DNA of 64,000 bases from the IMG/VR virus record IMGVR_UViG_3300045988_137301; one strand, given 5' to 3'. The translations under genes were made by a program, and so were the position numbers. Below the pieces are notes generated by a model. The model saw only the letters and a list, made by a program, of their open reading frames with translations, was not told the DNA's origin and ran no database searches. This document shows positions 1 through 60,975 of this stretch, piece after piece; the stretch's first letter is position 1, and each line of letters opens with the position of its first letter. Source of the DNA: a virus.

Positions 1-1699
1 AATGGTATTTCCATTGTTGAATCCCATTAAGCTATAGTTACCAGCGGAACCTCCCTTCAAAGAAAAACTAACAAGATTGTTTGATAGCACCTTATCCCCA
101 TTATACTCTAAAGTAATTACCTCTGTTGTGATCTTTAATTCTAAGGTATGTTCAATATTAGGATCATCTACTACCTAAGCTGTTATTTTTTTTTCTTGCT
201 AGGATTTCTAAAATAACTACGATATATCTACCCAGGCAATAGAGTCTATTATTTCCTCTGGGTCTAGTTTTACTCCAATTATCTCTCCGCTAGAAGAGTC
301 CGTAATACATTGATCATATTTTATATTTGCAACCTTAAATGTTCCAGATTGAGATCCATAGCTTATCTTGACGTTAAAGGGACCAACTCTATCAGATATT
401 ACGGAAGTGGTAGCGATAGCGTACATAACAATTCCAACCTTGATATTTTTATCGGAATTATACTACATTAGTAATGTTTTGTCTGCTTTTGTGTATATTT
501 TGTCAGAGTTATTATTTAACATTACCCCATATACCATGATACCATAGGAATAAGTTGGTGTAACTACTGACACTTCAGCCTGTACGGTTTCTCCGTTTCC
601 TTTATGTAATGTTAGAATACTACTCTCTACATCATAGTCCATAGAAGTTATATCCTATCCTTCGGCGCTGTCTATTTTTCTACATAAAAAGTCTTCAACC
701 TACATTCCAGACTTTCCATTCCATGCTTCGTCTGTGTTTTTTATTCGATTGGCATCTCCTAATTCTTCAAACTTTGCCATTTTTTAGTAAATTAAGTATT
801 TTTCCATGTATCATCTTGTAACCAAGGTCTATCTTGTATCCATGTACCACTGCCAAAACAACTTTTAATAGCATACACAGTAAGCCAAACCAGCTAAGAA
901 CCCTTGTATATAGCTCCAATATTTTTCTAAACCTTCTATTGAATTTCGTTTACTAATCCAAGAACGTCCTTTTGGACCTATAGTATTAGCTTACCATTTC
1001 TATATATCATGACTTAGCAAAATCTTCTTTAACCTTAGTTTTTATCTAACTTAGCAAAGTTAAATATTCATTATATTCTTCTACGACGCTTTCGTCTGAA
1101 CTTAACTACTAAGTATAGCTATTGTAGGAATTTATTAAATCAAACTCTTCATCTATTTTAATAAATGCTCTTATTATAGCTTTTACACAATCTTTATAAT
1201 TTGGTTGACCAGTTAGGTAAACCTGAATGAAACTGTACTAGGTTTCGATTTCCGTTCCTAATTCACTTCCCTCTTTAGACACTTCCACTTCTACCTCTTG
1301 TATGTCATAGTTATAGTAGTAGGAACCGTTTCCCAGTTTTTGAATCGTCTAAGGGTAAGTGTTTGCTTGTATTCTTCTTGGCTCTATCATACGGTGTGAC
1401 TTTAAAATTTATAGGAAATTCATATTTAAGTAACTAGTAGAACAGCCTTCTGCTGTTACTCTAAAAATAATAAGATTTATGATTGTAAATAAAATGCACT
1501 CTAAAACTCTTATTATAACTAACAATTTCGACAACGTGTATGTATTTGTTGTAGAATTTGGAAATGTTAACCCTCTACCCGTTCCAGTTAGAGAATTTTA
1601 ACCCTGTTAATTTTTCTATCTTTTGCCAAGTGGCAAGGACACTATTTATTTGAATAAATTAGTATGTGAAATGTTTATATAATAAAGCTGACATTGGAA

Positions 1700-1796
1700 T
1701 TGGCATTGCTGACTCCATTGTTAGAATTGAAATAGCTAAGCCTGGAATTGGACCCATTATTAGCGTTGCCGCCTACTAGCAGTGTTTTTTAGCCAA
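1700..1796 (-). repeat. Decayed AT-shifted copy of the Gly-rich 3' module of the tail-fiber gene, without a start codon
   Basis: Minus strand translates as KTLLVGGNANNGSNSRLSYFNSNNGVSNANSN, parallel to LRVGGSAFGSASGLGYFSSFTGVG of the adjacent tail fiber. Nucleotide alignment to 1905..1968 is recognisable. A TAA immediately precedes it. Confidence 0.45.
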
Positions 1797-1856
1797 CCAA
1801 CAGTATTATAAATAGCATCCTGTTATTAATTTAATATTTAAAATATTTATGTAAAA

Positions 1857-3929
1857 TCAATTCATTCTCGTAAGGCTTCGGAAGCCGACAGCGAAACCGG
1901 CAAGGCCGACCCCAGTGAAAGAAGAGAAATAGCCAAGCCCGGAAGCGGACCCAAAAGCGCTGCCGCCCACCCGCAGCGTCCTAAGAGCCGTAGAGGAAGC
2001 ATTACACCAATGATAGTCACACATATAAGTGGAAGCTGAGCCTCCAGTGGAAGAAGGAATAATTTCTCCAGTCTCTCTTAGGTCAAAAGATTTTATGTAT
2101 CCATCAGAAGCTATCTCAGAACCTGCAACTGTCATATCTTCTACTGTGTCTTTGAATAGGGAAGAATTTGAGGTGGTATATACTTCACTTGGCTGATTAG
2201 CAGCACTTCTCTATAATATTATTCCGTCTAGATTAGTCCAAATATCTCCAAAGGGATTATCAAAACCTCTCCATCTTGGAACCCAGAAATCATGAGTAGG
2301 TACTGTTACTGTTTCGCTTACAGTAGTTTCAGGAATAGTTAATTTCTTAACCCCAGAAAAATTACCAAACTCATTACAGTATCCACATGGAGTTATTGGA
2401 TTAGTAGAGTTATAACCACTCCAGGAGGTTTCTGTGTTCTACCAATCAGTAACTCCTGGTCCCATTCCTCCCTAATGATATCCATCAGATGTTAGCTCTG
2501 AGTTATAGGTATCCTGACAATTAAATGACGCATATTCTATTACATAATTCCAATAGAATATCCATTTATAGAATTCATAACACATTAACTCAGACCCAGC
2601 TGCCTAGGCATATCCTCTCATTACTGATCTTGAAAGATTTGTTCTTGGTTTTCCTAAATCAGTTCTGAATTTATCAGATTCAAGATAACTATCATAACTA
2701 TCCCTATTAGAACCTCCCCTAAACTAAGTTGTTGTGTTTACAACAGAAACAGCCTTCGGAGTTAAGGTAGTGTCTACAGTACATCTATATGCGTCTACCA
2801 ACATTTCTGGTATTTCTATCCAGGTGCTATCAATTCTTACTGTAGATATTCGTACCCATCTTATATCCCCATTCTATCCTGATTTTCCGTAGAATTTAGG
2901 AATGTGAACTCTAACTGTACCATCTGTTCCATCCAGTATCGAGTCTTCTCCATTTACTTTTTTGGACCAATCATTAGGATCTAAGTAGTAGTTTATAACA
3001 GAGCCATTAGCTACACATCCTTTGTATGCAGACTAGATCGGGAGAGATTTATGTAATAGTGGGTTACCTATCCTAGTAAGTTTCGGATCAGATACATTTA
3101 TATCCCACTGCACTCCGTAGGAATAAAGATCTTCATTACTACTTATCTCATTTATAGACTCCTGCATTGATTGCTATTTCTACTATATCAAGTTAAACTA
3201 TGCCTCTAATTTTGTACTGGTATCTGACCACTGAGCGGTCCCATCAGACTAAAAAACTAACATCTAACCTTCCTGACCTCCAGAGGGGATATGTTTGTTT
3301 CCAGAGGTAGAAGGATGAACGTAATTATTAGCATTGTTTTCTATCCCCTACAACTTCCGTTTTTCCTCGGAAGTATAATCATTTGTGGATAAACCTTTTC
3401 CCTCCTCTGATGTTACTTTAGACTAAAGCTCTGTATTTAATTCTTCTTCAGTAACCAAACTGTCAAGAATTCCTTGCAAGCCAGCAACGTCAGCAACGAC
3501 ATGGTTGTGAGCCTTGTCTGCCTTGGTTGCCAGTCCGTCAGTTACTTCAGTCTTAGTAGCTTTCTCATCCAGAGCGGTCTGCAATCCGGTGATGTCAGTA
3601 ATAGCGTGATCATGAACTTTGTCTGCTTTACTATCTAACTGTGTCTACAGATTTGTTATATCGGAAATTGAATGACTATGACCTATGTCTGATTTTTCCT
3701 CAAGAGAATCTAAGACTTCTCCTATATTTGTATCGTGAAGTTGTAATTCCTGAGCGAGTTCTTCTAGAGTATCTAAAGATTCCGGTGCAGCTCCAACAAG
3801 CTACTTAATTTTGTTATCAACTTCCTATTTACTAGCATAGGTCTCTGTAATTCTGTTTCCATTACTGTCATAGGTAGCTTTTATATCAAAGATCTGCCCT
3901 TTTACCTTAATATTTTTTATAGCTGACAT
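1857..3929 (-). CDS. Tail fiber protein (~690 aa) with multiple in-frame TAG codons (read as Gln)
   Basis: ATG at 3929, TGA at 1857-1859, start and stop in the same frame. N-term verified nucleotide-by-nucleotide: MSAIKNIKVKGQIFDIKATYDSNGNRITETYASK(Q)EVDNKIK(Q)LVGAAPESLDTLEELAQEL. Rougher translation further in shows HxH / DITGLQ repeats and 'EEKRKL(Q)GIENNANNYVHPS...GG(Q)EG(Q)MLVF(Q)SDG', a classic tail-fiber motif that is only canonical with TAG=Gln. C-terminal 92 aa matches the listed ORF. Confidence 0.65.
1905..1968 (-). repeat. 64-nt GC-rich segment identical (reverse complement) to 29242..29305
   Basis: Direct comparison: 64/64 identity. Encodes GGSAFGSASGLGYFSSFTGVG at the tail-fiber C-terminus. 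Local GC is far above the window background. Confidence 0.8.
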
Positions 3930-3930
3930 A

Positions 3931-4119
3931 TTATTCAATAATTAGTACCTCGTCACTCACAGTATGTTCATCTATTTTCTCTTCTAATTCTAATTGAAGA
4001 TCTTCTTTAGTGACATAATCTTCTAAAATTGAAGGGTCTACTCCCCCATAAAAGTTTCCAGTCATTTTTACTGGCTAAGTAGCTTTTTTAAACTATCCTT
4101 CTAGATAAATTATTCCCAT
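3931..4119 (-). CDS. Small hypothetical protein (62 aa) with 2 in-frame TAG
   Basis: ATG at 4119, TAA at 3931-3933, traced codon by codon: MGIIYLEG(Q)FKKAT(Q)PVKMTGNFYGGVDPSILEDYVTKEDLQLELEEKIDEHTVSDEVLIIE. Lies directly upstream of the tail fiber. Confidence 0.35.
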
Positions 4120-7100
4120 ATTAACTGCCTATATCAGTATTTACTTTTTCTTCTAAAGCTTCTAATCTCTGCAAGATAGGAGACAGTAAAGAATCTACTT
4201 CGCTTTTAGAGTAATAGTTGTTACTCACCCAAATCTAGCTCTAGGTTTTTGTATTATAATTCTGGTCTAAATATTGCTTGGTAACATAGACAAGATCCTC
4301 ATCTTCCATATCATATATGTAGTAATAAGTATCTTCCTGCAACTCTTCATTCTCCTTTAAATCTTCATACTCCTAATTTGAAAGAGTGACTAATTTTGGA
4401 ACATATGATTCTGTAGCAAGTCTATCATCTTCAATATATAGTCCGTCAGCTTTTAGTTCTACAACCAACTGACTCTCTCCAGCTTTTGGGGATTTTACGT
4501 ACTATACTGTTATACTCTCTAATTGCCCGTCTCCATCCGTTTTTAAGGTTTTATCTAAGTCCTCTTTTATTTGTTCCTAATCCCTATCATACTAGTTTTT
4601 AGTAACAAACACAAAATCATCCCCTTCCATTCCTTCACCTCTCAGACTTTCTTTTGTTACAAAGATTTCGTCTGTCTCTTTTTTAGTGTAATACTACCCT
4701 AAGGTAGTTGATAGAAAGGATTCGGGATCTTCTAGATCAAGATCTGTTATAGGAACATACTTTTCCTAAAGTTCCGATATTGTAGCATAATCGGATAGAC
4801 TCTCAGAAACCTTATCTAACTCCTCAGATAAACTATTTACGGAATCTTGTGAAGCTTTTTTGTTTAATTGATCTTCAATATTTTTCCCCCAACTGGCTGA
4901 TAAATAAAACTAATCTTGATTCTCTATACTATCTTCATAAATATAGTAGTATGAATCAGCGTGCAAGTAGGGTTTCTCCTAATCTATAGGCTTAAAGTCG
5001 TCTGTGGTATTAGCTCTTAGCTCCAAATATTCTTGTTCTGTGCAAGTTATTATTTGAATAGATTCATAAGAAGCCTTCCACCCTTCTTTAGTGTTTATCT
5101 AAGACTTATCAACAAGCATATAAATATTTCCGTCCCCCACATTAGAAACGGTCATACCCTGATAAGCTACATTCTTAGGAATAGAATATAATTCAGATAC
5201 TGAGTCAACTACAGTTCTATTATCCAAGGGTTTAGGAGCTTCTACAGTAAGAGAAACTCCCAAAACTGAGTCTCCTGTATATTTAAATGCCATTATTCTA
5301 CCAAGGTAAATTTAATTTGATGAGGTAGTACAGCAGAATAAGAGTCCTTCTTAGTCCAAACCTTATAGGTAAACTACTACATCTACTCAGTAGAAGTTTC
5401 CCAGCCGTTTAAATCTACGTCTAAATACCCCAATCCTCCGTTCACTTTAAATAATTCCAACTTTGAATTAGTTCCAGGAAGTTTTATAACAGCCCTTCCA
5501 TTTAAGGATAACTCTATAACTTCTGAAGATTTTCCAAATGGAATAAGTATCTGTTTAGAAGTACCTTCAGTATTTCCAGCGAACCACGGATATGTTGCCG
5601 TAATAATAGCTGACGTCTATATAGATCCTGCCTCTACTCTCTTATCTGTTACCTCTCCCTTATTATTTGTCAAGTATTCTCCTGAATCATAAGTGACAGT
5701 AGCAGAATAAACATACTCTCCTACAGAAGTATACTGTTCCAGATTCTAAATTTCCTGTTGTTTGTAAGTGACTTTCTCCTCTCTAGAAGTTTCCTCTCCT
5801 GCATCGTTTTTTATGAAATTGAGGATTGGTTTTAAATCATTACTTCCTACTTCAACTAACTGAGAGGATGGAGTATAATACAACTCTGGGTATATAAGAT
5901 CTCTAACATATGTTGGGAAAATTAGAGTATCTATTATTTCACTGAAAGGTTTTCCTTTTAATTTTTCTACTGTAGTTCCCTCTATAATAGTGGAAGTAGT
6001 TTCATCAGGGAGATTAGTTTCATAGGTTATGGATTGTTTTAGATTCTCTATATCCTAGGAGTTATTAGATATATTTTTCTAAATATTTTCTATGCTGGTA
6101 TCTATCTCTGTAATTTTGCTTTCATAATCCTTGACATAAAGTCCAGGCAAGGTTATCTCTGTAGGTTCTCCCTCCTCTCCTGGGTCCAGGATTTGTTTGA
6201 CTAAGTGAATAGCATTATCTTCTTTATCAGAGATAATTACTTCCAGAGAATCTTCTATTTTTATAGTTTTAGAATTTTCTAAATTTCTTGTTATCCAATT
6301 CTAAATGTTCTTATCAACATCAATATTTTCTATTGCTTCGTTGATATCAACTATCTACTCATTAATACTCTAAATACTAGTATTAATAAGTCCGATGCTT
6401 TCAGAATTTTCGTTGATTCTCTACTATAATTCAGATTCAGTTTCTTCTATAGACTACTTTACTTCTGCTATCTGCTAACTTAGCTATTCTATCTCTTCTG
6501 TATTATCCTCATATTTACTAATATAGTACAAAGCATAGTCCAGAGCATCTTTTACTGTATTTATATCTTCAGAAACGTCACTGCTATACTACCACTTTTG
6601 TTCTATATATCTGACTAAGTCTTTTTGTTCCTCTATAGTTCCGTCTATATTTCCCCATAGAAGACTTTGTTCATCAGCTATTCCTAGGTTTTTTCGTACC
6701 TTAGCCCTTTCTAACTCTGTTCTATACTCTCCTAGGTAATTATTTCTTAATAGAGGAATAGGATCACTTTTTATTGGTTTTCTCTTCCCGCAGGGGACGA
6801 TGTCTGCATTACTTACAGAAGTGTAAATAGGTTGTATCATCCTTATTAAGTAATTGCTATTTAACAAACTCGTAGTTATCTATCTTAGCAGGAAGACTTA
6901 TAAAACAGATTAAATTAAGTATATTTTGGTAATCTGGTTTATATCCTTTTTTTACTTTTCGTAAAAATTCCTAATATTCTTTAATGGCTTTTCTTTTAAG
7001 AGCATCCACAGCTTATATTTTTATGTTTATTATCAAGATTACTGCAAAATCCTCCACATGTTCTAAACATTGATAATAATCTTTCGGCCTCCATGAATTG

Positions 7101-10100
7101 TTTAAAGCCTATTAAATAATCTATAATATTGAGGGTCATCCAAATAAAATCCCTAGCAAATACGTCTTCATCATGCTGACTCGTTAGACATTTATTTAAG
7201 AGTCCATCAAATAATCTCTTACAATAATTGATATAACACTATTGTAGATTTCCCGTAAAAAATATATCAACCTTACACTTTTTAATGGTAGTTCCCTCTA
7301 TATTTCTCTCTAGTATTTCTCTAACTGTACATTCTTCCAATTTTCCTTCTACTTCTTTGTAGAGTTTTTCTCCGTCTGTTATATATATAGTATCATAATA
7401 CTCCTTGTATTCGTCTGAAGAATTCTCATACCATTTCATATTAGGAAGAATTATGTGATCTACTACATAATAGCCGTCTTCTTTAACTCTAAAAGTACAA
7501 GAATCTAAATCCTCTGTATGATCATTAAGTAATACGTCGATTAATGTAGCATCTCCTATACTTACTTTTATTATGGTGTTTAATGTAGCGCTCTCACTAT
7601 ACTTATAAGAATCGTAAGAAGTTACAACTTCTATATCTTCATCAATGTACTATCCATATTCTTTAGAAAAATCTTCTATAGTTATCTCACCATTAATTTG
7701 TGTATGAACATCAATACTAAATTCCATAATATTAAGATTCAGATTCAGTTCCAGGCCATTGTCCGTACTAAGCTGGAGTTGAAAAAGCTCCTAGTTTACC
7801 CTCTTGTCTAACCCTACTAGACATGAAAACTCTAGGGTAAGAGGGGCTAATGTCCCTAGGGTAAATACTCCATTCATAGTCTCCAGTTCCAGGAGGAAGA
7901 TTACTTAGTTTACTAGCAGGCGAACCATCACTATAAAAGTTGTAGTCATAGGCTTTAGTGGAAGTCACCTCAGTCGTCTCCTGACCATGTTCATCTATAT
8001 AAAGAGGATTTCCCTCTTCATCTTGTTTTTGTTTATATTCTATTATTGGTTTGACACCTTTTGTTCTAGCATATATAGTCTAAATTACCATAGCAGAATC
8101 ACTCGCTGCTATCTCATAGAATTCCTTTTTAACACTCCCACCTGCTGAGCTAAATGTGGTTTTTTTCCATGTGTACGGATATTCTTCACTGGGGACTTCA
8201 AAGGTGTCTCCCCAACCGTCTTGCTACTATTTTACTTTCTCCACGTCACTGGTATCTAGTCTTATATAACTTATAGAAATATCTACGCCTCCAACAGCTT
8301 CTGAAGAGTTAGTAAGATCATCTATTTGTTCTAGTATAAATTTTATATCCTCCTCTACAGTAGAATTAGTAACATTTTGTCTGGCTTCGCTCTTTACGAA
8401 TTGAGCATAAGTAGTAGGATATATTTTGTTTTTGTCCTTATCGTATAACTGTGTATCTGTCATAATTCCCTAATTTTATCATTATACGGATTACCGTCTC
8501 TTAACTAGGCTATTTCAATCTCAGTTCTTTTTTCTTCGATGTCTAACTATCTATCTTTGTAAGTTCGTTCAGTCATGGCTTTATACCAATTTACCTAATA
8601 TTCTAGTTGTATCTTCTACTATTCTAACTAAAGTCGAGATTCATCCAATTGCTATATCTTTTGCTGAGCTTTCTACAGTTCAGAAGATAGTTCTTGAGCC
8701 TATTGAGAGGTTTCTTCTAATTTTTCCTAGAGCTGCCTTAGCTAATTATTTTCATCTTTTTGAACTTGTATAGCTTTTTTAACCTTATATTTTAAGTCTG
8801 TTAAGCTCTTAGATGTTAATGCCTCAAAAATAATATCAGGATCTATACGCTAACTTTTTACAAACTCTGGAATCATCTATTTTATGGTCTATAAATCCTC
8901 CATAATCTCTGTACTAGAGATAACATGAACATCATAATCTGTAAGAGTAAAATGCTCAGGAAGAGCTGTAAATACTTGCTAGTATTTATCTCCCAGAATT
9001 ATAGTTCCCTATAATCCGTTCTTGTAAACTATTTTTGCCTAATTTAGGCTGTCTAGAAGTATTTCACAAGTTATAAGATCCATTTGCTAAAAATAAGGTT
9101 TTGTGATGGTGAACGAATTAGCAACTCCTTGTTTGATATTTGTTACCGCATCTCTCTATTCTATACCATTCAATCTTTCCCTAAAGACTCCAGTTATGGA
9201 TGAAGTAGTCTGTTCTACTGATTGTATAGCTAATTCTATTGCTTGGACAGCCTACGCTTTTAGAGTATCATCAAATCCGTTATATATTTGATTTGGGGGC
9301 TAAGCTCCATCATTATTTCCTTCCTAGGAAGAATCTATCCACATTATTCCTCCTTTTTTATAAGCAAGCCACTTCTATACTCTTTCTGGCCATTTAACTC
9401 CTAGATTTGTAGGAAGTAGATTCATGTCCATAATAACTCCAGAAGTTCCACTATTAGCTATAAGATTGTCTCTATAATAATTCAATAAATCATATCGATC
9501 CTGCAAATGTGCACACTTTAAAATTAAAGAATATGGTTGTTGAGACCTGTTTAAGAAATAGACTCCGTTTATAGAAAGTCCACAAAAGTTTGGATTACTT
9601 TTAGATCTTATTACACTTTTATCCAAACCTCTCAGAACATATATATTTTCTCCAATTCTAATAGTTGTATATCTTTGCATTACAAAATCATTGTCAGTCT
9701 CAATCCATTCTACTTCGTATACTGGTATTAACTGAAACCTATGAGTGTTGTATTCGTTATCTGGATAACCTGGGACAGAACTTTCATTCAAATCATCATT
9801 TACTGCGATACAATTATCTGCAAAAACCCTCTTATAAGTAGCTGCACCATCCCCATCATACCATCTGTCCTTTAGCTCTATTAAATCCTTTTTTGTTAAT
9901 TCCTTTCCATATTTGGCTAGTATCTAACTTTTTGTTAACCACCTTCTAACCACAGCTCTATAGGAATCTCTAACGTATGGAGATTCTGGATTTCTGTCTA
10001 TAAAGGTATTTAGCGGATTTAAGACTTCTATTTGAATATTCTTCTTGCTAGCAGATTGCTTTACTTTAAAGAAAGTGTAACCTGATATAAGGAGGTCAGT

Positions 10101-10819
10101 TAGTAACTATCGAAGTTTAGTCAGTAAATCAGTTTCTCTTGACTGCATTATATAATGAACAACATTCTAAGCAGCTATCTCATACTAAGAAATGAAGGAC
10201 TAATCAATATCCTAAATTATTTTGTCTAGCTAAGTCTTTACAGCTTTATCAGTAATATCTTTTCCATCTATGAACTACAAAATCGAGTTTGTAAGATGGT
10301 CCTTTAGAAACTTTACAATTCCTTCTGTAATTTTTAACTATTTCTCTCTTGTTATATTTGTGATAGTATCAGAGTCCTTGCAAGATATTTTAGGGAGTAT
10401 AGGAGTTCCTAGATATTCTCCCACCAGAGCATCAACATGTTTTTTCAATAGTGGAGTAAATTCTACAGATGTAGGAGAACCTATCCCAAAATTCTCTTCT
10501 AAATATCTAAACTATTCTGGGTCTCTTTTTCCATTGTAGTAATTATAAGCTTTCTACAATTCATACTTGTTATAAACAAGCTCCGCAATAGCCTCGTTTG
10601 TCTTGTCTATTAACTCTTTCTCTTTCATAACATAAATTATGTTGTTCTGGAGGAAGTTTAGTAGCGTTATAATATTTAACTCTCTATAGCTTCCTATTTC
10701 TTAATTCTTCCTTTATAAAGGGAAGAAATTCCTCATCTGGTAAGTCTGCTATTATTACTAGAGGCATTTCTGATCTGTCAAAATTAAAAGACACCTTATA
10801 TCCAACTGGATATAAATCC

Positions 10820-13186
10820 TCAATTTCTAATCCCCCTATATACTCCATCTTGTATAAGTCTTTCATATACCCGAGTATCACTTGTTTCAATTCTGTATGG
10901 GTCATTGTATTCTTCTCTCTATATATCAAATTCGGGAGGTTTTCTATCTGGAATAATTCCAAATCTTTTTATTCCTTTCTCATCATAATAGTAACCAAAA
11001 TCTCTAAACTATTCAACCTCTTTTCTTACAAATGATGGCTATCTTCCGGAAAGTTCCTAATCAGCTAGTTCAGTCATACCCATAGCTGCAATTATATCGA
11101 ATTTTCCTTTGTTCTCATCATTATATCCAGTTAGCTATTCTAACATCTCTTCAAACCATATAGTATGGCAATAATCTTCTACAAAAGCAGCCGTTAAGTT
11201 AGTATGCTATTCTATAACAGTTTTGGTAGCAGGAGTTCCATATTGTTTAGTGCTTCCATATTTTATATCCGTTAGGGTAGCCTTTGGTCTTTTCATGAAA
11301 TATCCTAAATATCCCTTTTCTTTTGCCCAGGTAACCATACTCATTCTAGTAGCTTCTATATTTATCTTACAATTATAATATCTAGCTAGGCACATAGCTA
11401 TCTTATATGCCTCTCTAATATCTCCTGGCCTATCCTTATATAGAGCTACATACTAAGGCTCATTAGTTCCAAATAACCTTTTCTTTATAGTTATACAAAA
11501 GTCAGAAGGGTTTCTAGTTTCCTTAGAAGTCTAGTTAGCACCAATATCTATTCCATCTATCCCTGCTACGTACAAATCATTCATTTCCTTGTAGACGGGC
11601 ATCTCGAACTCCTCTCCTCTTTCTTCTGCTTCCTGCCTTAGTTTCTCTACTTGCTCCTTGTATAAGTCCGACCATACAGGGTGCTCTAGAATTTTTACTT
11701 TCCCCTTATTATTTGGAATCCACTTAAATCCATCAATATTATCCTAAGTATGTTTATTGTTTTTATAGAAATAGTCTATATATCCAACCTCTATTCGTGG
11801 ACCTATTTTCTTCAACCTGATGTTAGCTAACTAATCTGCAATAAGTATTTTATTAAACTTATTTATTCCCTCTAAGTTGAAAGCCTCTTCAGCATTCCAG
11901 CAACGTTCTGCACATTTTTTTAGGTAGTCCTCTGGTACAGCTAATAGATTATCCCGCTCCTCCTATAAGAATTTTTTATACTCCACAGTATTACATACTC
12001 CTCTGTGGTCCATGAATTCTGGATTCAAAGATTGTATAAAGTATGGAATAAAGAATCCACTCTCTATAGTAGTTCCGTCCTGAGTCCAATTATGTCTAAA
12101 TGGGAGAACCTTATAAGCTCTAGGATTATAATAGATTTTTTTTAAACCTTCCAAGGGAGCGCCCATATCTCCACCAGTTCCTCCAAATAACATGGTCCCA
12201 CGAGGCATACCCTACACCTCACAAAGTTCTTGACCTTGTACTACAGCAGTGTCAAGTCCTGGCCAAGATCCTGCCTCATCATATATTAACAAATCAACAC
12301 GATCTCCTCTAATATTAGATGGCTTGGAACCATTTTTTCCAACTACCTCTGATTTGAATCCTATGTCTTCAAACTAACCATTTACTTTTATCTATTTTCC
12401 AGATTTTTTTCTCAAATCCTAGTCAATTAGGCGTAGTTTGAAAAATCCTCCGCCTGTACAGGTATTTAAAAACGTCAAAGCATTGTCAAATTTACTGAAC
12501 GTTCCCTTAAGGAACATATCATTAAAGCAGGTAATCATGACTCTACTTCTTCTAATAACAGAATACATACGAGCGGAAAGAGAGGCGTTTATTTCAGAGA
12601 AACCTATTGAACGAGCTTTCATTAAGGCCGCATGCTTATGTAGCACCCTAGCCATCTATAGATAATGAAAGAACATATAATGTGATGCAAAGAATATTGG
12701 GAAGTCATTATCAGTACCCTCACCAGAGGCTTTCTACTAGTCAATAGTAGGTAATTGATAGAAGTTTAAGAAGAAGTAATTATCTCCAGTAATGGTATAT
12801 CCATTAACTGTCATTCCATACTTACATCTTCTATATTGTTCCTTCCAGAACTCATTATATCTCTTACTATCTCTAAGGTAGGGACAATACTAACCAGTTC
12901 GCCTATATATTTCTCTGGTTTCTGTAAACCAATCTGGATCAAAATCAAGACCATGTGTTTCGTCAATAGGTCTATATCCTGTTATTTCGTAAGATAAGGT
13001 AGGATCAAATACTTCTATTTTTTCTCCCTTTTTAACATCCCAGTAATCTGCATTCTTGTCTCTCTCTTCTCTTATTTTCTAGACAAGCTGCCTCGCTTCC
13101 TAGGCGTCCTCTTTGTATTCTTTTTCCTTTACCTAATCTATTATACTCTATATTTCTTCAGGCAATATTTTCTTCTTCCTTGGCAT
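10820..13186 (-). CDS. terL: Large terminase subunit-like protein (~788 aa) with many in-frame TAG
   Basis: Frame traced from ATG ~13186 to TGA at 10820-10822. Contains a Walker-B-like RVDLLIYDEAGSW and a nuclease-domain-like DLYVAGIDGIDIGANQTS. Embeds listed ORFs 12419..12655, 11963..12208 and 11207..11395 in one frame, joined through TAG codons. Confidence 0.5.
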
Positions 13187-13188
13187 AA

Positions 13189-13749
13189 TCAAAAGTCTCC
13201 TGGGTCATAACCATCAACTGCTCCTGCTCTTACAGTTGACTGTTCTGTAAGTTCTTTCTTAACCTAATCTTCTAGAGTTACCAATTCCTCATGAACCTTA
13301 TGTAAGGTGGCCATTTCTTTCATTACCTTTTCTGCCTAGAATATTGGTTTTCCGTTATTATCCCGTTCATTCAGATCCACAATAGTATCAAAATAGTCAA
13401 TAAACTAGTCCGCAGCTCTCTTTGCGGCTTCAAGCAACTTGATTGATTTGTTGGAATCTTGCAATGCTCTATATTTTCTGCAAGCTTCTCTAAATATAGG
13501 ATCATTAAATTCTGACTCAGTTAGTCCAGAGTCACTAATTGCTTCGTCATGTCTCTCATGTTCTGAATATTGACTATACGGACTTTTCCAATCAATAGCT
13601 AGATAGATATATGTTAGTTCTCTAGTAGCCCTATCTTTTTCGATAGATTTATCTCTCTATATTAAGGCTTTAAATTCCTTTACTAACAAAAGCTCAGGTT
13701 CATTTATTTCTAGCTACTTATTTAAGGTATTGTAATTAAACACATTCAT
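13189..13749 (-). CDS. Hypothetical protein (~186 aa), candidate small terminase, with in-frame TAG
   Basis: ATG at 13749, TGA at 13189-13191, 2 nt upstream of the terL ATG. MNVFNYNTLNK(Q)LEINEPELLLVKEF... Confidence 0.35.
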
Positions 13750-14630
13750 ATAACATTGGCATAAATCGTTGATTTGTATTATTTTCTTCTAACCTTAGAG
13801 CCACATTTCATTTTAGCTCCACATTTTCCTTTTCTTTTCATAACTATTAAGGTTTTCTGGGATCGTGTCCACTTTTCTTACTATTAAAATAATCTTTCTC
13901 GCTCGCTCTATTTTTCTCCTCTTGAGTAGCTTCCTTTGGATTAAATCTAGGATATTTGGTTCTTCCATTTAGGTCCTTAATACCTTTCTTGGTATGAATA
14001 GTATCATTAGGATTAATGGATTTTCTTTCCTATTTGAACTTCTGCACTGCATTTAATTTCTTCTATGTTTTTCCTCCCTTTTCCATCTATTTCTTTTGGC
14101 AGGATTTACATAGCTTTCCCCCTACTTTAAAGTAAGTCATTTCATAGCCATCGGGACATACTCCTTTTAATTTTTTATAATATTGTAGCTTTGCTCCTAA
14201 TCGAGCCATTACTCCTCCCTACATTTTCTGTATAAATTCTTGATATTTGGCTTTTAGTCCTTCTTCTCCTAGTTGTTCGGCGTAGGACTGTAAATCCTAT
14301 TCTGATTGTAGCTAAATTCCCTAGGCGGCCGCATCTTGAATTAAATAGGCCATAAATGCTTTTTGTAATTCTTCCTGATTTTCCATTGTTCCTTTAATTT
14401 CTATTTATTATTTTATCTAACTATCCTTTATTAGGATAAGGTCTTTGGTATTGAATATCGCTTCCTGAAGTAATCCGCTATCGGTAAACCATCTACACCT
14501 TAACCCTTTTAATCCCTGGTTATCTTTAAATAATGCTGCCTCTTTTCTTAGTACAAGCATTACTGGAGAGTGCATTAACTCGTGCTATCTTAGAGTAACG
14601 CAATCCCCAGGCTTAAAATAAATTTTCTCA

Positions 14631-19012: not shown

Positions 19013-19246
19013 ATGAAGTTTATTTCTTTCTTAAAAGATGTAGTAACCTCATAGTCTGGAATTAGTAGCAAAAGAGTATGTGGACTACTTGGGTGGTTAT
19101 TGTGTTTAGGAGTTCTAGTGTATTGTACTGTTACTTCTAAATAGGCTCCAGTTATGATTGATACTATTGTGTGGTGTTGTATGGGATTGCTTGGAATTGA
19201 TTCAGTAACTGGAATATGGAAAAAGTTTGATAAGAAGAATGTATAA
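19013..19246 (+). CDS. Small membrane protein (77 aa, two hydrophobic segments, holin-like) with 2 in-frame TAG
   Basis: MKFISFLKDVVTS(Q)SGISSKRVCGLLGWLLCLGVLVYCTVTSK(Q)APVMIDTIVWCCMGLLGIDSVTGIWKKFDKKNV. Start and stop are in frame (231 nt). Confidence 0.35.
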
Positions 19247-19253
19247 TAAAATA

Positions 19254-19293
19254 GGTGAGCCTAGATTTAATTGTCTAAGCTCACCTATTTTTG
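19254..19293. terminator. Rho-independent-type terminator hairpin between convergent gene sets
   Basis: ggtgagc...gctcacc stem followed by tattttt. Confidence 0.4.
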
Positions 19294-19500
19294 GTTGTTA
19301 CATTCACAAGTGATTCCATTTGGTCCTGCCCACCAATATTTGTCCAAAGATGGGGTTCTGATACCGCTGGGCCAGTTATAAGCTGGAGTAATTTCCTCTA
19401 CTATAGCTTCCATTATCTTAAATAGTGTATCTAAATCTAGCTCCGGAAGTAGCTCATGAATATTAGTTATTGTTTTCTTATAGTCTATCATATCCTTCAA
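19285..19500 (-). CDS. Hypothetical protein
   Basis: Listed ORF. Confidence 0.35.
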   Translation of the reverse strand: MKDMIDYKKTITNIHELLPELDLDTLFKIMEAIVEEITPAYNWPSGIRTPSLDKYWWAGPNGITCECNNQK

Positions 19501-19738
19501 AAGTGTCGTTAATAATTGCTTTCTTTATTGTAGTATCTTTATATAAACCATATTGTAGTATATTTCTTACTTGATGGTCTACTTGATTCCATAATATATC
19601 TAATAATATAGAAGAATCATCTGAAAGACTATGTTGCGGATAGCTAGCCTTTAAACTGCTAAGTACTTTTCCATTAATGTAAATGTCAAATATGAAATTT
19701 TTTATATCATCTGTAGTTTCCATATTAGTACGATACAC
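19478..19738 (-). CDS. Hypothetical protein
   Basis: Listed ORF. Confidence 0.35.
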   Translation of the reverse strand: MYRTNMETTDDIKNFIFDIYINGKVLSSLKASYPQHSLSDDSSILLDILWNQVDHQVRNILQYGLYKDTTIKKAIINDTFEGYDRL

Positions 19739-19887
19739 TTAACTTATTTAAGTCATCTAGATAATTCAAGAACCATTGTTCGTTTTGTTTTCCTTCTTCT
19801 ACAATAGTATTAATTAAAGATTCTGTAGCTAATAGTGTTATTTCTGCTAGTTCCTCTAATTCCGATTTAGTAAGTTTGTTATATCTT

Positions 19888-20202
19888 TCAATCAAGTTTA
19901 ACATAATCCATCCAATCTTTTATATATGATTTACATTGTTCTAAATCTGGATAGATGCTTGTTACAGAATGCCCAGTTTTTGGATTTTTGAAGTGATGTA
20001 ATTTCAATTCTCTTTCCTTCTCTTCTGTGTTTCTATTTAAAGTTCTATTCCAGTATTCATATTTTTCGTCTAACTTTTCAATGCTGCACTCTTCTAATAT
20101 TTTCATATTAGGATTATTTATTATCTTATTATATTTTCTTTTTAAGTTAGACACTTTTATTATATCACTTCCGTTTAATACGATTGCTGCACACTGCTTC
20201 AT
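19888..20202 (-). CDS. Hypothetical protein
   Basis: Listed ORF. Confidence 0.35.
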   Translation of the reverse strand: MKQCAAIVLNGSDIIKVSNLKRKYNKIINNPNMKILEECSIEKLDEKYEYWNRTLNRNTEEKERELKLHHFKNPKTGHSVTSIYPDLEQCKSYIKDWMDYVKLD

Positions 20203-20267
20203 TATTATATATTTTTACCTAACCGAGGTGTTGCCCTACTAGGATTCGAACCCAGACTAAATGATTT

Positions 20268-21267
20268 CATTTTACACCGTTTTGCGGATTAGACTATCAC
20301 ATCCAGTCCTAAGACCAGTCCCTCTGTTTAGTCGTTCACGCTGCACGTAAATACTGCTTGCGCCTTGTCACTTGTTTGCTTCCAAGTCAATTAAGAGGGA
20401 TTCTACTTAAAGGTTATTTATTATTCTTTAAGCATCCAATAATTTGAAATAATAATTATTCCACAATTTATCAATGTTTCTTAATAGAGTATTTCTACAG
20501 GTTTTTAGTAATTTAGTTTTAACTAAATTATTATTCATTAAATATTCACAGCATTCAGAAATAGAACCAAACCTATTTAATTCTTCCATATTAGAATCAT
20601 ACTGTATAATATATTTCTGATTAGACTTTCCAAGTCCTGCATCTGAAATAATTTGTTTTATAACTGAATGTTTTACATTTAATACTTCTGCGACCTTTTT
20701 CTGATTTTTTAATTCTAGATATTTTCCTATAACTAAATCTTTTAACTCTTCTGTAATATCATATTTAGATTCAGTTATTTTTTGATTTCTAGAACCATAA
20801 GTATCAGTCTGACTGTGGCAATTAGGACATAGAAACCTTAAATTCTCTAACCTATTATCATTGTTTTCACCATTAATGTGATCAAGTTCTAATGATAATG
20901 TTCTTCCATTCCACTCTGTTATTCCACATATAGCACACTTGTAAGGAATTAAATTATCCTGTATAATTGTTCTCCTTAATATATTTCTATTATGTTTAGA
21001 ACCTTTACAAAACAATTTATCTTTATCTATTTTTTTAAGTTCATTACTAGTTGCTATTGCAGACTTTCCTCTAAAATTCTTTCCTGATAAATTAAGATCT
21101 GTCATTCTTTGTTTAACTTGCGAATATCCCCATGAATTTCCTTTCGTAGTATAACCAAGTTTAAATAAAACTTCTGAGGTGTTAAGACTTGACTTAACTA
21201 AGTCTATAAATTCCTCGTCTGTAAGTTTATAAATTTTATTTTCCATAATTATTAATTCAAATTCTTA
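20268..21267 (-). mobile_element. Group-I-like self-splicing intron (~1.0 kb) carrying an HNH homing endonuclease ORF
   Basis: Interrupts the tRNA anticodon loop. The 3' region contains a P7/R-S-like stretch gaacgactaaac...gatagtctaatccgc. The ORF fills most of the intron. Confidence 0.45.
20428..21246 (-). CDS. HNH homing endonuclease (intron-encoded)
   Basis: Listed ORF. CAICGITEWNG...ELDHINGENNDNRLENLRFLCPNCH is an HNH motif. Confidence 0.65.
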   Translation of the reverse strand: MENKIYKLTDEEFIDLVKSSLNTSEVLFKLGYTTKGNSWGYSQVKQRMTDLNLSGKNFRGKSAIATSNELKKIDKDKLFCKGSKHNRNILRRTIIQDNLIPYKCAICGITEWNGRTLSLELDHINGENNDNRLENLRFLCPNCHSQTDTYGSRNQKITESKYDITEELKDLVIGKYLELKNQKKVAEVLNVKHSVIKQIISDAGLGKSNQKYIIQYDSNMEELNRFGSISECCEYLMNNNLVKTKLLKTCRNTLLRNIDKLWNNYYFKLLDA

Positions 21268-21957
21268 AGAGTCATCTGTGCTCACCATTACACCATAGGG
21301 CAATATTTATTTCTCCTCTTTTAGTTTCTGTAACTCATTTTGGAGTCTCTCATTATCCTGTAATAAAGCCTTTATGTTAGCATCAAGATTTGCCAAAATC
21401 ATTCTTATTTGAACTATTTGCTCAAGCATATTTAGATAGGGCTTTTATTTTATTCTTTGCTACTGTTGATAAGGCTTTCTTGAATTTAATTATTCCGGCT
21501 CTTACTGAATCTATATTATCGCTATATATACATTCCTGGATTCTTTTTAGTTCGTCGTTTCCCAGAAATTCACAAACTGATACAAATAAATCATCATCTA
21601 GCTCTTCTATTTCTCTTTGAAAAGCTCTAGCTTCATTATCTTTATAAGAAATTTCTATTCTTAAAGAATTTTCATCTGAATTTGATTTTAAAGTAAAACC
21701 ATCGTTACTATATTCATAGTATCTATTTTCATTAATAGCTTTTACTAGTTCATTAAACTAGTTCTCGTCAAAAAATGTTTCTAAATTTGTTTTCATAAGC
21801 TTCTTTTGTTTTAGTTATATACAACTATATGGCCATGATTGTTAAATACAAAGTTAAAAAATTCTAATTGAAAATTCTTAAATTTTAATTATTTAGTCGG
21901 AAACAGGTACAGGTACTTTATATAAATATCCCCCTGGGGTTTTAATAAATCCGGAAT

Positions 21958-22815
21958 TTAGAAATTAGAAATATTATTATATAAGTCCAAAATTAATTTT
22001 TTAAATTCTTCTGTTGTCATATCATTCTTAGCAGTGTTTACTCTATTAGTTGTAATAACAATATTTCCTTCTATGTACCCTAGATTACTATCTATCCTAT
22101 CTATTGAGTAATCTTTGTAATTCTCCGGAATTAATCCTGTATAATAATCTTTAAATTCTTGCTTTAACAAAAGCCCTCTGATATAATCTTCCGATATGGT
22201 ATACTCCATTATTTTGCTTCTAAGTCTCCATCCTTGTTTTGACTTTTGATATAAAAAACTAGCAATTAGTTCTTCTTGACTAGTATTCTCTGTTATTACT
22301 ATTGGTTTTTTAGGTGAATCAGTTTTATAACCATGTTCCGTTTTTATTGCATTAGACGGAAGTAACCCTGATACTAGTTTAGAATTATTTTTTAAATATT
22401 GTAAATAATTATCTCCTACTATACTTTCTATATTAGAAATCATTTTATTCAAATTTGTAATATTTTCATTTCTGTTTACTCTCCTAGCTATTTCCTTTTT
22501 AGACAAATCTTCTGTAATATTCTGTTCCAGGCACCTTAGTAAGAAGCTTTTCTGAAAATTATTTAATTCTTTATTTAATATAAATCTTGGACATCCTACA
22601 TGATCTAATATTTTATATCTATGATAAAATCCATTTTTTGTGTAGTTTTCTATCTTTTTTAATTCAACTAAATTCCTTAGAGATTCTGCTAGTGTATCAG
22701 TAGCATATCCGAAGGTTCTGTTTAACTCAGTGCCACTAAAATTTGAAAATCCGTCACTCTCTTCATAGGCATTAATTATTGCCAATAATACATTTAAATT
22801 TTTCTTCATATCCAT
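21958..22815 (-). CDS. HNH_3-type homing endonuclease-like protein
   Basis: Listed ORF. The C-terminal IDRIDSNLGYIEGNIVITTNRVNTAKNDMT motif is characteristic of HNH_3 (I-HmuI-like) nucleases. Confidence 0.45.
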   Translation of the reverse strand: MDMKKNLNVLLAIINAYEESDGFSNFSGTELNRTFGYATDTLAESLRNLVELKKIENYTKNGFYHRYKILDHVGCPRFILNKELNNFQKSFLLRCLEQNITEDLSKKEIARRVNRNENITNLNKMISNIESIVGDNYLQYLKNNSKLVSGLLPSNAIKTEHGYKTDSPKKPIVITENTSQEELIASFLYQKSKQGWRLRSKIMEYTISEDYIRGLLLKQEFKDYYTGLIPENYKDYSIDRIDSNLGYIEGNIVITTNRVNTAKNDMTTEEFKKLILDLYNNISNF

Positions 22816-23070
22816 TATTTTTTTTAGTTATATCCAATGATACTATCAATTTCTGACATTCCCAAATAGTCCGGACTAAAAAGTCATATATCAATATTAT
22901 GTATATCTTTTGTTAGTTTTATATTAATCAGTTTATCTGTATATATAAAATATTACAGAGAGATAAGAATTATGGTGCACAACCCCTTTAGTCCCCCCCT
23001 GTATATTGATATAAAACTAAAATAAAAACAGAAATTCAAATTAAGTAATAATAATTTAAAATTTAAAGTT

Positions 23071-23511: not shown

Positions 23512-24804
23512 GAAAGGGGAGAAATCCCTTTTCTTTTAAATACAAATAATCTTTGTAGAAATGAACATAAGAAAAAAGTTTAAAACTATAAAGTGTTTGT
23601 ACAACTGGGGAACAATCTACAACCCAGAGACTGATGAAAAGTTAAACTTTAAGACTAAGCGAGTTTATTGTATAGCTTCTTGGGCTTGGGTCATGACCTA
23701 TCAAAAGTCAGAAAAGGATATTCCGGAAATAATCAGGATTGTCTTTGTAGATTAACTCTAAGGTACTATGAGTTATAAATAAAGTGCCCATATGAACCCC
23801 ATCATTGGAACATTGGTTAACGGGGGAAAACAACATCACAACAAATCAAAGTTTTCTGTTTAGTTTTAGGATTATATCTGGCAGCTTGGAAAGACAAGCA
23901 AATTGTGTTACTAATAGATTTAATGCTCATCTAGGGATTTTGGAGGAGAAAGGAAAGAAATTGTCCACTAAAAAGACCCTCAATTTCCGGACTTTTTCAA
24001 ATTCTCAAAAAACCTGCCAGAGTAGGAGTTATATAGCTCATACTCTCTATGAAAATTATCTAGTGTTTAGTCTGTAAAAAGACACCAAAAAGAAGGGTTA
24101 CGCAGAAAAGCCCAACACCAAAAATAACTGCTACAAATCTCATGTGCATATTCGCAAACTTAAGCACTATAGGATTTAGGTTGAGCTGTAAGGATTGGTC
24201 ACTTATAGCAATATTATGAGTACTGCTGATATGTCAGTGACCGCACATATTACATATAAAATATGTTATACGATTATGTTAGAAGTTGCCAGGTCTAAGA
24301 AGCCTGATTAAAATCTCTAGATAGTAAGAGAGAACCTCATAAGGGTTCATTTTCCATCTCGAACCTATTCGCAAGTTTATAGACTAGCTATCTATAAATT
24401 TAGTGAACGTTGATAACGTCCTCAGCATGGAAAACTGAGAAATAATCTCCTATCTTATTCTAGATATAGATAGGATTTCCCTACTGGTATAATGGATTAC
24501 ATCTCCCTTTAAAGGAGAAGATTCTGGCTCAAGTCCAGAGTAGGGAACTATTTAGTTGGATGTAGTCATATTATTATAATTATTATTGGATCATAATGGG
24601 TATGCCCTGAGACTATGTAGTTGTTGTGAAACAACTCAAAGTATTGTGGCACAGGAAGGCCTAACTTCTTTTCACTATTTATAGACTAAAAGGCACAGCG
24701 GTGCCTTTACTCTCAAGATAAGAACAACCTTTACGTGGTTTGAGAGATAAGTAAGCTATTTTAGCTGAAACTAATAGTTCTAGTAACAATTAAAAATATT
24801 CATC

Positions 24805-34363: not shown

Positions 34364-34483
34364 TTCCTACTTAGAATGTACTATAGTACACTGCAAATCT
34401 TCTATCTTATAAAAAGGTCTTGGATTTGCATTTTTGTAGGGCCTATAGCTCAGTTGGTTAGAGCAACTAATTATGAGTCAGAT

Positions 34484-34560
34484 AGGGACGTATCCCCTCA
34501 AGCTTATACCTTGTAGAAAGGGTAGTCGGTCGCACGTGGGTTCAAACCCCACCGTCCCTA
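34484..34560 (+). ncRNA. tRNA-like element (7-bp closing stem plus canonical T arm) nested inside the insertion
   Basis: agggacg...gtggg-ttcaaac-cccac-cgtccct. No standard D or anticodon arms. Confidence 0.3.
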
Positions 34561-34585
34561 CAACTTCTGGATTGAATTTTTAATT

Positions 34586-41290: not shown

Positions 41291-41394
41291 AGTGCCATCA
41301 TCTAATGGTTAGGACATACGCCTTTCTAGCGTAGAATCACAGTTCGAATCTGTGCTTGAGTACTTAGCTACGGGTTCGAATCCCGTTGGCACTA
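41291..41394 (+). tRNA. Composite tRNA-Glu(TTC)-like locus with a duplicated T-arm/acceptor segment (~104 nt)
   Basis: 5' acceptor agtgcca; D arm atc-taatggttag-gac; anticodon tacgc-ctttcta-gcgta; first T arm cacag-ttcgaat-ctgtg followed by a non-pairing cttgagt; second T arm acggg-ttcgaat-cccgt followed by tggcact, which pairs 7/7 with the 5' acceptor. Confidence 0.4.
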
Positions 41395-60541: not shown

Positions 60542-60975
60542 TGGCTGCTGAAACAATTGCAATCGTCGGTGAATCAGGAACTGGAAAAAGTACCAGTCTT
60601 AGAAATCTTAACCCAGAGGAAACCTTTATTATAAGTACCACGGGAAAACCATTACCTTTTAAGGGATATAAGAAGAAGTATGTTCCTATGAAAATAGAAG
60701 GTAAGATAGTAACTGGTAATTACTATGTAAGTTCAAAATGGGATCAAATCTTGAAAATTTTGCAAATCATTGATAAAATGATGCCTAACATAAAGCAGGT
60801 AATCGTTGACGATTAACTTTTTAACTAATTTAAAGAAAATTTTAAACATATTATGTTCAATATCTCATAAGATATTTATATACTTGGTAATTAATAATTA
60901 AATCTTATGGGAAAAATTAAATATAATAATGAACAAATTTTTGAATTACATGCTTAGGGCTTAACAGATTCAGAA

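Follow-up and report, generated by a model that had tools for sequence, protein, structure and literature searches.

A probable mobile group I-type intron with an HNH endonuclease gene in an amber-suppressor tRNA gene of a TAG-recoded phage

How does a phage that uses TAG as a sense codon in its late genes accommodate a UAG-reading tRNA gene that is interrupted inside its own anticodon loop, and does the decoding of UAG then depend on removal of the interruption? The question is raised by the IMG/VR virus record IMGVR_UViG_3300045988_137301, analysed here as one stretch of 64,000 nucleotides (nt; hereafter the window), whose minus strand carries two halves of a tRNA(CUA) gene with exactly 1000 nt between them (21267–20268) and, within these 1000 nt, an open reading frame (ORF) for an HNH endonuclease. 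An initial annotation had interpreted the locus as a Gln-type amber suppressor split by a group I-like intron, on whose splicing the translation of the late genes would hinge. The explanation that we favour, and in which we have high confidence, is that a TAG-recoded phage has its amber-suppressor tRNA(CUA) gene interrupted, at positions 35/36, by a group I-type intron that is mobile and encodes an HNH homing endonuclease.

The split tRNA(CUA) gene and its uninterrupted counterparts

The two exons and the sequence between them are arranged as follows:
21268..21302, minus strand: 5' exon of the tRNA(CUA), tRNA positions 1–35, ending in C32 U33 C34 U35; part of the cloverleaf; one D-loop base differs from the intronless orthologues
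20231..20267, minus strand: 3' exon of the tRNA(CUA), comprising A36 A37 A38, the 3' strand of the anticodon stem, the variable loop, the T arm, the 3' strand of the acceptor stem and the discriminator A73
20268..21267, minus strand: group I-type intron of 1000 nt; a clean insertion compared to syntenic intronless relatives, with a U before the 5' splice site, a terminal G and a covarying core

The 5' half (21302–21268; 35 nt, including a standard 8-nt D loop) reads TGCCCTA TG GTGT AATGGTGA GCAC A GATGA CTCT, and the 3' half (20267–20231; 37 nt) reads AAA TCATT TAGT CTGGG TTCGAAT CCTAG TAGGGCA A; the lengths of both halves and of the gap had been given correctly to the base in the initial annotation. 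When the halves are joined, the acceptor stem is complementary at 7/7 positions and includes the pair U1:A72, likewise as first described, and the anticodon stem comprises 5 bp, one of them G.U. With each of the eight possible 7-nt loops, the joined sequence is folded as a cloverleaf by ARAGORN. The junction is flanked by GATGA-CTCTTAAGAATT on the 5' side and by TGTAAAATGAAA-TCATT on the 3' side, and CUCU/AAA (the slash marking the splice junction) is the only choice that combines a U as the last exon base with a G as the last intron base. It places the insertion between tRNA positions 35 and 36 (35/36) and yields the loop C32 U33 C34 U35 / A36 A37 A38, i.e. CUCUAAA, with the anticodon CUA; ARAGORN reads the sequence joined in this way as a 73-nt tRNA with the anticodon cta, and the orthologues are likewise called cta. 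The split gene was detected neither by default ARAGORN nor by Rfam scans of the window. Intron-aware ARAGORN (option -i), which had been suggested as a check, did find the gene on the minus strand (c[20230,21302] tRNA-Lys(ctt), i(38,1000)), but misplaced the intron at 37/38 and thereby labelled the product as tRNA-Lys(CUU).

The ligated product predicted for the CUA junction is a 72-nt tRNA that contains GAUGACUCUAAAUCAUU across the junction, and the corresponding junction 21-mer, AGATGACTCTAAATCATTTAG, was found in 36 IMG/VR contigs, mostly of 95–193 kb. In 35 of these 36 contigs it forms part of an uninterrupted 72-nt tRNA(CUA) that is identical to the predicted spliced product at 70–71 of 72 positions. 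The junction 21-mer for the CUU product had no match in IMG/VR. As counterparts are present for the CUA product and absent for the CUU product, the product sequence and its anticodon are settled without any assumption about splicing chemistry, and they agree with the unique U/G junction proposed at the outset. Positions 19238–20209 and 21259–21959 of the window align to contiguous DNA in the intronless relatives, with an identity to the closest of them of ~86% in the downstream flank and 67–76% in the upstream flank. Since both flanks are syntenic in the intronless contigs, the window differs from its relatives by a clean insertion of 1000 nt.

An intron-bearing allele of this exact tRNA was not found among the IMG/VR contigs: the 18-mer across the 5' junction gave one chance match only, inside a DNA polymerase gene, and neither a pattern of a non-T base (such as the omega G) followed by the 3' exon nor the exact 23-mer from the intron core had any match in IMG/VR. 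A megablast search with positions 18–24 kb of the window against GenBank phages gave no match, and blastn with the 3' domain of the intron returned three unannotated records.

Fold, family and endonuclease of the intervening sequence

The ORF and the RNA elements of the intron are distributed as follows:
20428..21246, minus strand: HNH homing-endonuclease ORF of 272 amino acids (aa), free of TAG codons, occupying the loop that separates the 5' splice site from the guide sequence
20435..20439, minus strand: proposed internal guide sequence UUGGA, in the last ORF codons (TTG GAT) and directly 5' of P2
20406..20432, minus strand: P2 hairpin, CUUAAAG...CUUUAAG, with the ORF stop codon in its 5' strand; 7/9 pairs change on both sides
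20292..20400, minus strand: catalytic core, P3–P8, in which P7 crosses P3 to form a pseudoknot
20400-20394/20325-20319, minus strand: P3
20386-83/20367-64, minus strand: P4
20379-78/20371-70, minus strand: P5
20362-60/20341-39, minus strand: P6
20357-56/20344-43, minus strand: P6a
20333-20329/20296-20292, minus strand: P7, GACUA with UAGUC
20318-13/20308-03, minus strand: P8, between the 3' strand of P3 and the 3' strand of P7
20268..20287, minus strand: P9 hairpin CCG CAAAA CGG (20287-20277) and then the tail UGUAAAAUG, whose last base is the omega G at 20268

The fold was assessed in an alignment of 29 family sequences that starts at the ORF end and extends up to the 3' exon (alignment A1), in which 40 pairs were counted for P2–P8. 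In the fold tested, P4, P5, P6 and P6a are nested inside P3, and folds with slid pairing partners served as controls. The group I fold is paired in 97.1% of the cells compared to 33–48% in the controls, 23 pairs change on both sides compared to 3–9, and the covariation score of the core fold is 0.423 compared to at most 0.095. The P2 helix was also recovered by thermodynamic folding, and P9 shows compensatory differences among the group A relatives (CCUCU/GAGG, CCUUU/AAGG, CCACU/GUGG, CCAU/AUGG). The P7-like strings pointed out in the initial annotation turned out to be the two strands of P7 in this covarying core. Compared by eye, P7 and J8/7 of the window (GAACGACUAAAC and GAUGUGAUAGUCU) are alike to those in the consensus of the Rfam group I intron model RF00028 (aAGACUAaAc and gAAGAUAUAGUCu). 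Introns of subgroup IA carry the extra helices P7.1/P7.2 between P7 and the 3' strand of P3; in the intron of the split tRNA, this joining segment (J7/3) has a length of 3 nt (AAC, 20328–20326), and no P7.1/P7.2 is found there.

Within the aligned sequences, the GGA of the proposed guide is invariant (29/29) and its UU is kept in 28/29, despite the coding position. UUGGA was chosen as the guide because it is the only such candidate, directly 5' of P2, that is conserved; candidates in the intron leader, GGAG motifs inside the ORF and the segment after P2 were rejected, as no conservation was found there. From the sequence, GGA (20437–20435) is predicted to pair with U33-C34-U35 as P1, with a G20437.U35 wobble at the splice site, and the UU of the guide would pair with A36-A37 as P10. 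Neither P1 nor P10 can show covariation, because the exons never change. With an internal guide sequence, P2–P9 and the pseudoknot of P3 with P7, and with its 5' splice site preceded by U and its last base, at 20268, being G, the insert is well described as a group I-type intron, as had been proposed, and it would be expected to splice itself.

An RNA pattern derived from the conserved segment 3' of the ORF matched 117 viral stretches. The junctions were parsed by a deterministic stem-complement method, ARAGORN calling over all U/any junction pairs having been too permissive, and this gave 38 distinct tRNA-type introns of 969–1003 nt. In 38/38 of these the 5' exon ends in CUCU/ and the 3' exon begins with /AAA or /AAC, and with the exon ends fixed in this way the anticodon is always CUA, while the backbones of the host tRNAs are clearly different. 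At 30 loci from other phages, many of them TAG-recoded, the split tRNA(CUA) is the sole suppressor seen within 2–15 kb, and default ARAGORN missed it at these related loci. No second copy of the intron family was found in the window by the pattern scan.

The ORF within the 1000 nt had been recognised as an HNH gene from the start, and matches to Pfam PF01844 (24.1 bits with a cut-off of 21.4, residues 104–146) and PHROG 10822 (1.3e-42) agree. The HNH motif is intact (CxxC...DH..N...N..CxxCH); searches for a named family or a solved structure of the protein led to nothing past the HNH domain. There are 22 protein relatives with 56–81% aa identity, and each of those with an upstream flank on the locus sits within a split tRNA. 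The last codons and the stop codon of the ORF overlap the guide sequence and P2. The intron shows a presence/absence polymorphism, with an empty site in 35 syntenic contigs, and because these relatives hold the tRNA without the intron, it behaves as an optional mobile element and not as a built-in gate. The intronless allele GATGACTCT/AAATCATT would be the predicted homing site of the HNH enzyme.

Several observations on other family members concern the intron ends, the host tRNAs and the leader. Introns ending in A are found at e.g. L062, L087, L107, L108, L126 and L142 (for instance UUUAACA/AAC); their ORFs and cores are intact, and no obvious compensating change was seen in P7. Non-canonical T arms, such as GUGGG GGCAGCA CCUAC, occur at L046, L047, L049, L053, L056–L058, L066 and L102, and intron-bearing tRNA(CUA) genes with such odd T arms would be hard to detect even intron-free. 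At loci of the group B type (e.g. L045, L048, L066, L072, L119, L176) a covarying helix of 7–10 bp connects the leader (+3..+17) with the ORF end, pairing UCCAAUR, UUCAAUA or UUCGAUG in the leader with YRUUGGAU and thus covering the proposed guide; the leader here mimics the ligated exons (UCCAAU vs UCUAAA). This helix is absent or insignificant in most of the subgroup to which the window belongs, the window itself having an AU-rich 9-bp match only. Such a helix might act as a guide decoy, might tether the two ends across the ORF, or might guide circularisation.

UAG decoding in the window and the part played by splicing

Two further features bear on the need for the split tRNA:
1..14386, minus strand: TAG-recoded late-gene block with 3–34 in-frame TAGs per gene, including genes for a tail protein, the portal and the large terminase (TerL)
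24478..24548, plus strand: intact tRNA(UUA) with the loop CUUUAAA and U1:A72, called by ARAGORN and matched by the Rfam tRNA model (58.2 bits), 3.2 kb from the split tRNA

The late genes do need UAG to be decoded, as originally stated: TAG is a sense codon in the PHROG-identified genes for the portal, TerL and the tail protein, which contain 34, 23 and 18 in-frame TAGs, respectively. Over 1–16 kb, the ORF coverage is 0–0.17 with the standard code vs 0.83–0.88 with TAG read as sense, and TAA and TGA are still true stops in the window. TerL shares 26–29% identity with terminases of crAss-like phages, and its close homologues are found on contigs of 160–195 kb. Judging from these sequences, the genome would be that of a large phage distantly related to the crAss-like phages, and it fits, also in genome size and intron density, the intron-rich Zeta group, of which it is a candidate member (PMC7886860, PMC12386605).

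Our best guess for the amino acid inserted at TAG is Gln, based on a codon-level comparison of TerL genes. In a 73%-identical homologue, the 23 TerL TAG sites of the window correspond to TAG (6), CAA/CAG (7), AAA (3), GAA (2), GAT (2) and other codons (3). Where TAG is present in one homologue only, CAA/CAG is the commonest partner (10/29), vs 4.4% Gln in the aligned homologues. A protein-level count of Gln at TAG sites (62% Q) was rejected as circular, because the database proteins had been predicted with TAG=Q, and the codon-level comparison was used instead. The Gln-type identity assigned in the initial annotation thus stands as far as the U1:A72 pair and the frequent alignment of TAG with CAA/CAG are concerned, but not with regard to the discriminator, which is A73, unlike the G73 of the E. 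coli GlnRS identity, or to a close cellular tRNA-Gln counterpart. In bacterial genomes, the D arm almost never occurs in combination with a Gln anticodon, the only matches being 6 short contigs of metagenome-assembled genomes (MAGs), and this result lends no support to descent from a host tRNA-Gln. Among the database TerL homologues (P0001–P0120; locus L177), 18/37 of the Q residues of P0087 are TAG codons, and the TerL P0004 contains an insertion, either an intein or a homing endonuclease.

ARAGORN, with and without intron search, found no second tRNA with a CUA anticodon in the window, in line with the earlier claim, which had overlooked the intact tRNA(UUA). A UUA anticodon reads UAG by wobble, as in E. 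coli ochre suppressors. A second suppressor was present in 10/10 relatives examined, 2.3–3.3 kb from the first tRNA, with the anticodon CUA in five relatives and UUA in the rest, one of the latter having a 6-nt anticodon loop. The idea that late-gene translation hinges on the splicing of one tRNA is weakened by the intact tRNA(UUA) and by the 35 intronless syntenic relatives; the first tRNA requires splicing, but UAG decoding in this phage is probably not controlled by splicing alone. The dependence may be stronger in other phages, because a split tRNA(CUA) is the sole suppressor seen near the 30 loci mentioned above.

According to the explanation that we favour, transcription would give a precursor of ~1.07 kb, in which the tRNA body and the anticodon stem would keep the two splice sites together across an ORF loop of 820 nt, and the 160-nt 3' domain would fold into the P2–P9 core. 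UUGGA would bind U33-C34-U35 (P1, with U35.G) and next A36-A37 (P10), and the attack of guanosine, followed by an attack directed by the terminal G, would produce the 72-nt tRNA with the loop CUCUAAA. The HNH enzyme, which is written in the standard code throughout, presumably cuts the intronless tRNA(CUA) genes of co-infecting relatives, after which repair would copy the intron in. With a guide directed at the anticodon itself, the lineage would be confined to tRNA(CUA) genes, and these are a conserved target common to otherwise diverse TAG-recoded phages.

Several results weigh against an active group I-type intron. P1 and P10 comprise only 3 bp and 2 bp, respectively, and are both invariant and beyond the support of covariation; the thermodynamic fold of the 3' domain is modestly better than that of shuffled sequences (z = -1.84); and the last intron base is G in 31/38 distinct family members and A in 7/38, and some copies may be inactive. 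Moreover, the alignment to RF00028 that had been suggested as a check failed: there was no match at the split-tRNA locus at the gathering score nor at E<=10, and among related loci none in 18 matched at the gathering score and none in eight at E<=1. This negative is a genuinely failed check, and is nonetheless best explained as a sensitivity limit of the model, as is suggested by relatives in another gene. In L085, a related core lies between two ORFs that correspond to Pfam NRDD profile positions 7–414 and 415–559, and in L061 between ORFs that correspond to positions 6–415 and 416–560; since the flanking ORFs meet at adjacent NRDD positions, both cores are introns at one exact point of nrdD (L085 3371–3595, without an ORF; L061 about 8044–8912, with an HNH_3 ORF). 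The nrdD gene of T4 is a classic group I intron host. RF00028 gave no match at E<=10 to the compact, ORF-less nrdD intron of L085 either, and because a nrdD relative with the same core family is also missed, the coverage of the model best accounts for the negative; RF00028 is furthermore reported to miss divergent tRNA introns (PMC13011429).

The element is real, and that it is a mobile group I intron is very likely, whereas its interpretation as a regulator is currently disfavoured. In the latter interpretation, the intron would be an evolved splicing gate, kept to delay or condition the UAG-decoding tRNA, and late translation would begin only after the ribozyme has spliced. The position of the split tRNA, which heads the block of minus-strand genes leading into the TAG-rich late region, would suit such a gate, as would its status as the sole tRNA(CUA) in the window, the avoidance of TAG in the HNH ORF, the overlap of the ORF end and stop codon with the guide and P2, through which translation and ribozyme folding could interfere, and the 30 related loci, many of them TAG-recoded, without another suppressor tRNA near the split gene. 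We nevertheless judge it unlikely, as the tRNA is uninterrupted in 35 syntenic relatives (with the flank identities of ~86% and 67–76% given above), an intact tRNA(UUA) is encoded 3.2 kb away, with CUA in some of its orthologues, and homing elements are typically marked by just this combination of patchy occurrence and a conserved endonuclease. Most likely, the dependence on splicing is no evolved switch but a by-product of a selfish element. It is conceivable, if doubtful, that the intron has specialised on the code switch, with a guide that reads the CUA anticodon and an HNH enzyme that targets the one gene on which the late translation of every TAG-recoded rival relies, making it a weapon in mixed infections as well as a translation-coupled timer. 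If this were true, cutting the suppressor gene of a rival would block its virion production unless the intron is accepted, the overlap of ORF end, guide and P2 could time the supply of suppressor, and the covarying guide-pairing leader of many relatives (UCCAAU vs UCUAAA) would be a regulator of the timer.

Loss of function appears quite improbable. The insertion would then no longer splice, the first tRNA would be a pseudogene and UAG would be read by tRNA(UUA) alone, which would be consistent with the existence of a second suppressor, the loss of the terminal G in some family members and the lack of an Rfam group I match. However, the exons are intact and 71/72 identical to working orthologues with all stems kept, the copy in the window retains the terminal G, the 5' splice-site U, the guide and all core helices, and the HNH ORF is intact as well. 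The canonical position 37/38, with tRNA-Lys(CUU) as the product, follows from the ARAGORN -i call and also gives a 7-nt loop, but it is hardly credible: it has 0 intronless counterparts at the CUU junction vs 36 for CUA, would put an A before the 5' splice site and an A as the last intron base, and would lead to inconsistent anticodons across the family (CUU, CUA, CUC), whereas 35/36 always gives CUA; the same misplacement by ARAGORN has been documented for other 35/36 introns (PMC13011429). We give equally negligible weight to a tRNA intron of the bulge-helix-bulge type that is removed by proteins, to a group II intron and to an endonuclease gene that stands alone, without a ribozyme. The silence of RF00028 alone would speak for an insert of these kinds, and against it stand the covarying P3–P8 core with its P3/P7 pseudoknot between the ORF and the 3' exon, the absence of any group II family above the Rfam gathering thresholds anywhere in the window, an HNH protein that matches HNH families only and has no reverse-transcriptase domain, and the occurrence of the same core in nrdD, where no tRNA-splicing enzyme could act.

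Known introns, recoded phages and neighbouring features

A guide that reads the anticodon has a parallel in Azoarcus tRNA-Ile, where the guide reportedly pairs with anticodon bases over 3 bp (CAU/GUG). Bacterial tRNA genes with group I introns include those for Azoarcus tRNA-Ile, Anabaena tRNA-Leu(UAA) and Synechocystis tRNA-fMet, the last with an endonuclease (PMC3984707). Like the intron investigated here, they are compact and situated in the anticodon loop, but they occupy positions 33/34, 34/35 and 36/37, mostly belong to IC3 and reside in cellular genomes, as opposed to 35/36 and a phage. Exon pairing in the anticodon stem aids splicing, according to Zaug et al. 1993 as it is cited in PMC3984707. 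The position 35/36 is shared with group I introns of Patescibacteria tRNA-Asn(GUU) and tRNA-Asp(GUC), which are self-splicing in vitro (PMC13011429, mSystems 2026). Some of these also contain HNH (PF01844) genes, and they too are missed by standard tRNA finders and have their junction misplaced by ARAGORN. They interrupt bacterial sense tRNAs, belong to subgroup IA and are mostly ~250 nt long and ORF-less, in contrast to the phage host, the stop-codon-reading tRNA, the single anticodon CUA, the absence of IA-type helices and the failure of RF00028 described here.

According to a 2014 review, phage introns had up to that time been known from protein-coding genes only, although phages have many tRNA genes (PMC3984707). 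The introns of T4 nrdD/sunY and of SPO1 relatives with I-HmuI resemble the present one in being phage-borne, in looping out an HNH endonuclease and in their sporadic occurrence among close relatives, and the core family described here also interrupts phage nrdD, as in T4. The hosts of these T4/SPO1-type introns are mRNAs, whereas the present intron interrupts a tRNA and has its ORF in the P1 loop, after the 5' splice site and before the guide. Recoded gut phages share the tRNA(CUA), the TAG-rich late genes and the standard-code early genes with the phage of the window (PMC7886860, bioRxiv 10.1101/2021.08.26.457843, PMC12386605); in these studies the suppressors are uninterrupted and an intron is unmentioned, whereas here the suppressor is split. 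In our literature searches, we found neither a suppressor tRNA described as split by an intron nor any phage tRNA gene reported to contain a group I intron. The locus would thus place a ribozyme of the self-splicing type inside the machinery of a genetic-code switch, with a guide complementary to the anticodon itself. A suppressor was detected in only 40% of TAG-recoded genomes (Borges 2021, bioRxiv 10.1101/2021.08.26.457843), and hidden split genes may explain part of the suppressors that appear to be missing from TAG-recoded phages. Annotation pipelines for recoded phages should therefore look for 35/36 introns, and the family alignment can seed a covariance model.

Directly upstream of the split tRNA, the window contains an ORF for a 285-aa endonuclease VII/HNH-like protein (21958–22815, minus strand). 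As 21959–22974 is missing from the syntenic loci L006, L009 and L013, the ORF probably represents a second insertion of a homing endonuclease, in this case a free-standing one. A RAGATH-14 RNA (RF03145, 174 bits) precedes the second suppressor tRNA by 27 nt, forming a module with it (24281–24548, plus strand). The literature search on RAGATH-14 gave no results. The same order of RAGATH-14 and suppressor is found in 10/10 relatives (L001, L002, L003, L005, L006, L009, L012, L013, L016 and L031), and even close relatives differ in whether the suppressor of the module has the anticodon CUA or UUA. Hammerhead (RAGATH-1) and pistol ribozymes occur within ~1–2 kb of the module in relatives (L003 11261–11330 and 12240–12308; L016 4269–4337). 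The tRNA(UUA) of the window is of the ochre type, in a genome where TAA is the commonest true stop (38/54 long ORFs).

Two more sites on the plus strand of the window, a 104-nt Rfam tRNA match at 41291–41394 (45 bits, no ARAGORN call) and an ARAGORN -i call of tRNA-His(atg) with a 32-nt intron at 34438–34561, could be interrupted or odd tRNAs, or false positives. A second group I intron is found at 61621–61877 (plus strand), where RF00028 matches with 57.1 bits; its P7 is separated from the 3' strand of P3 by a long insertion, and it overlaps the end of the ORF at 60958–61818.

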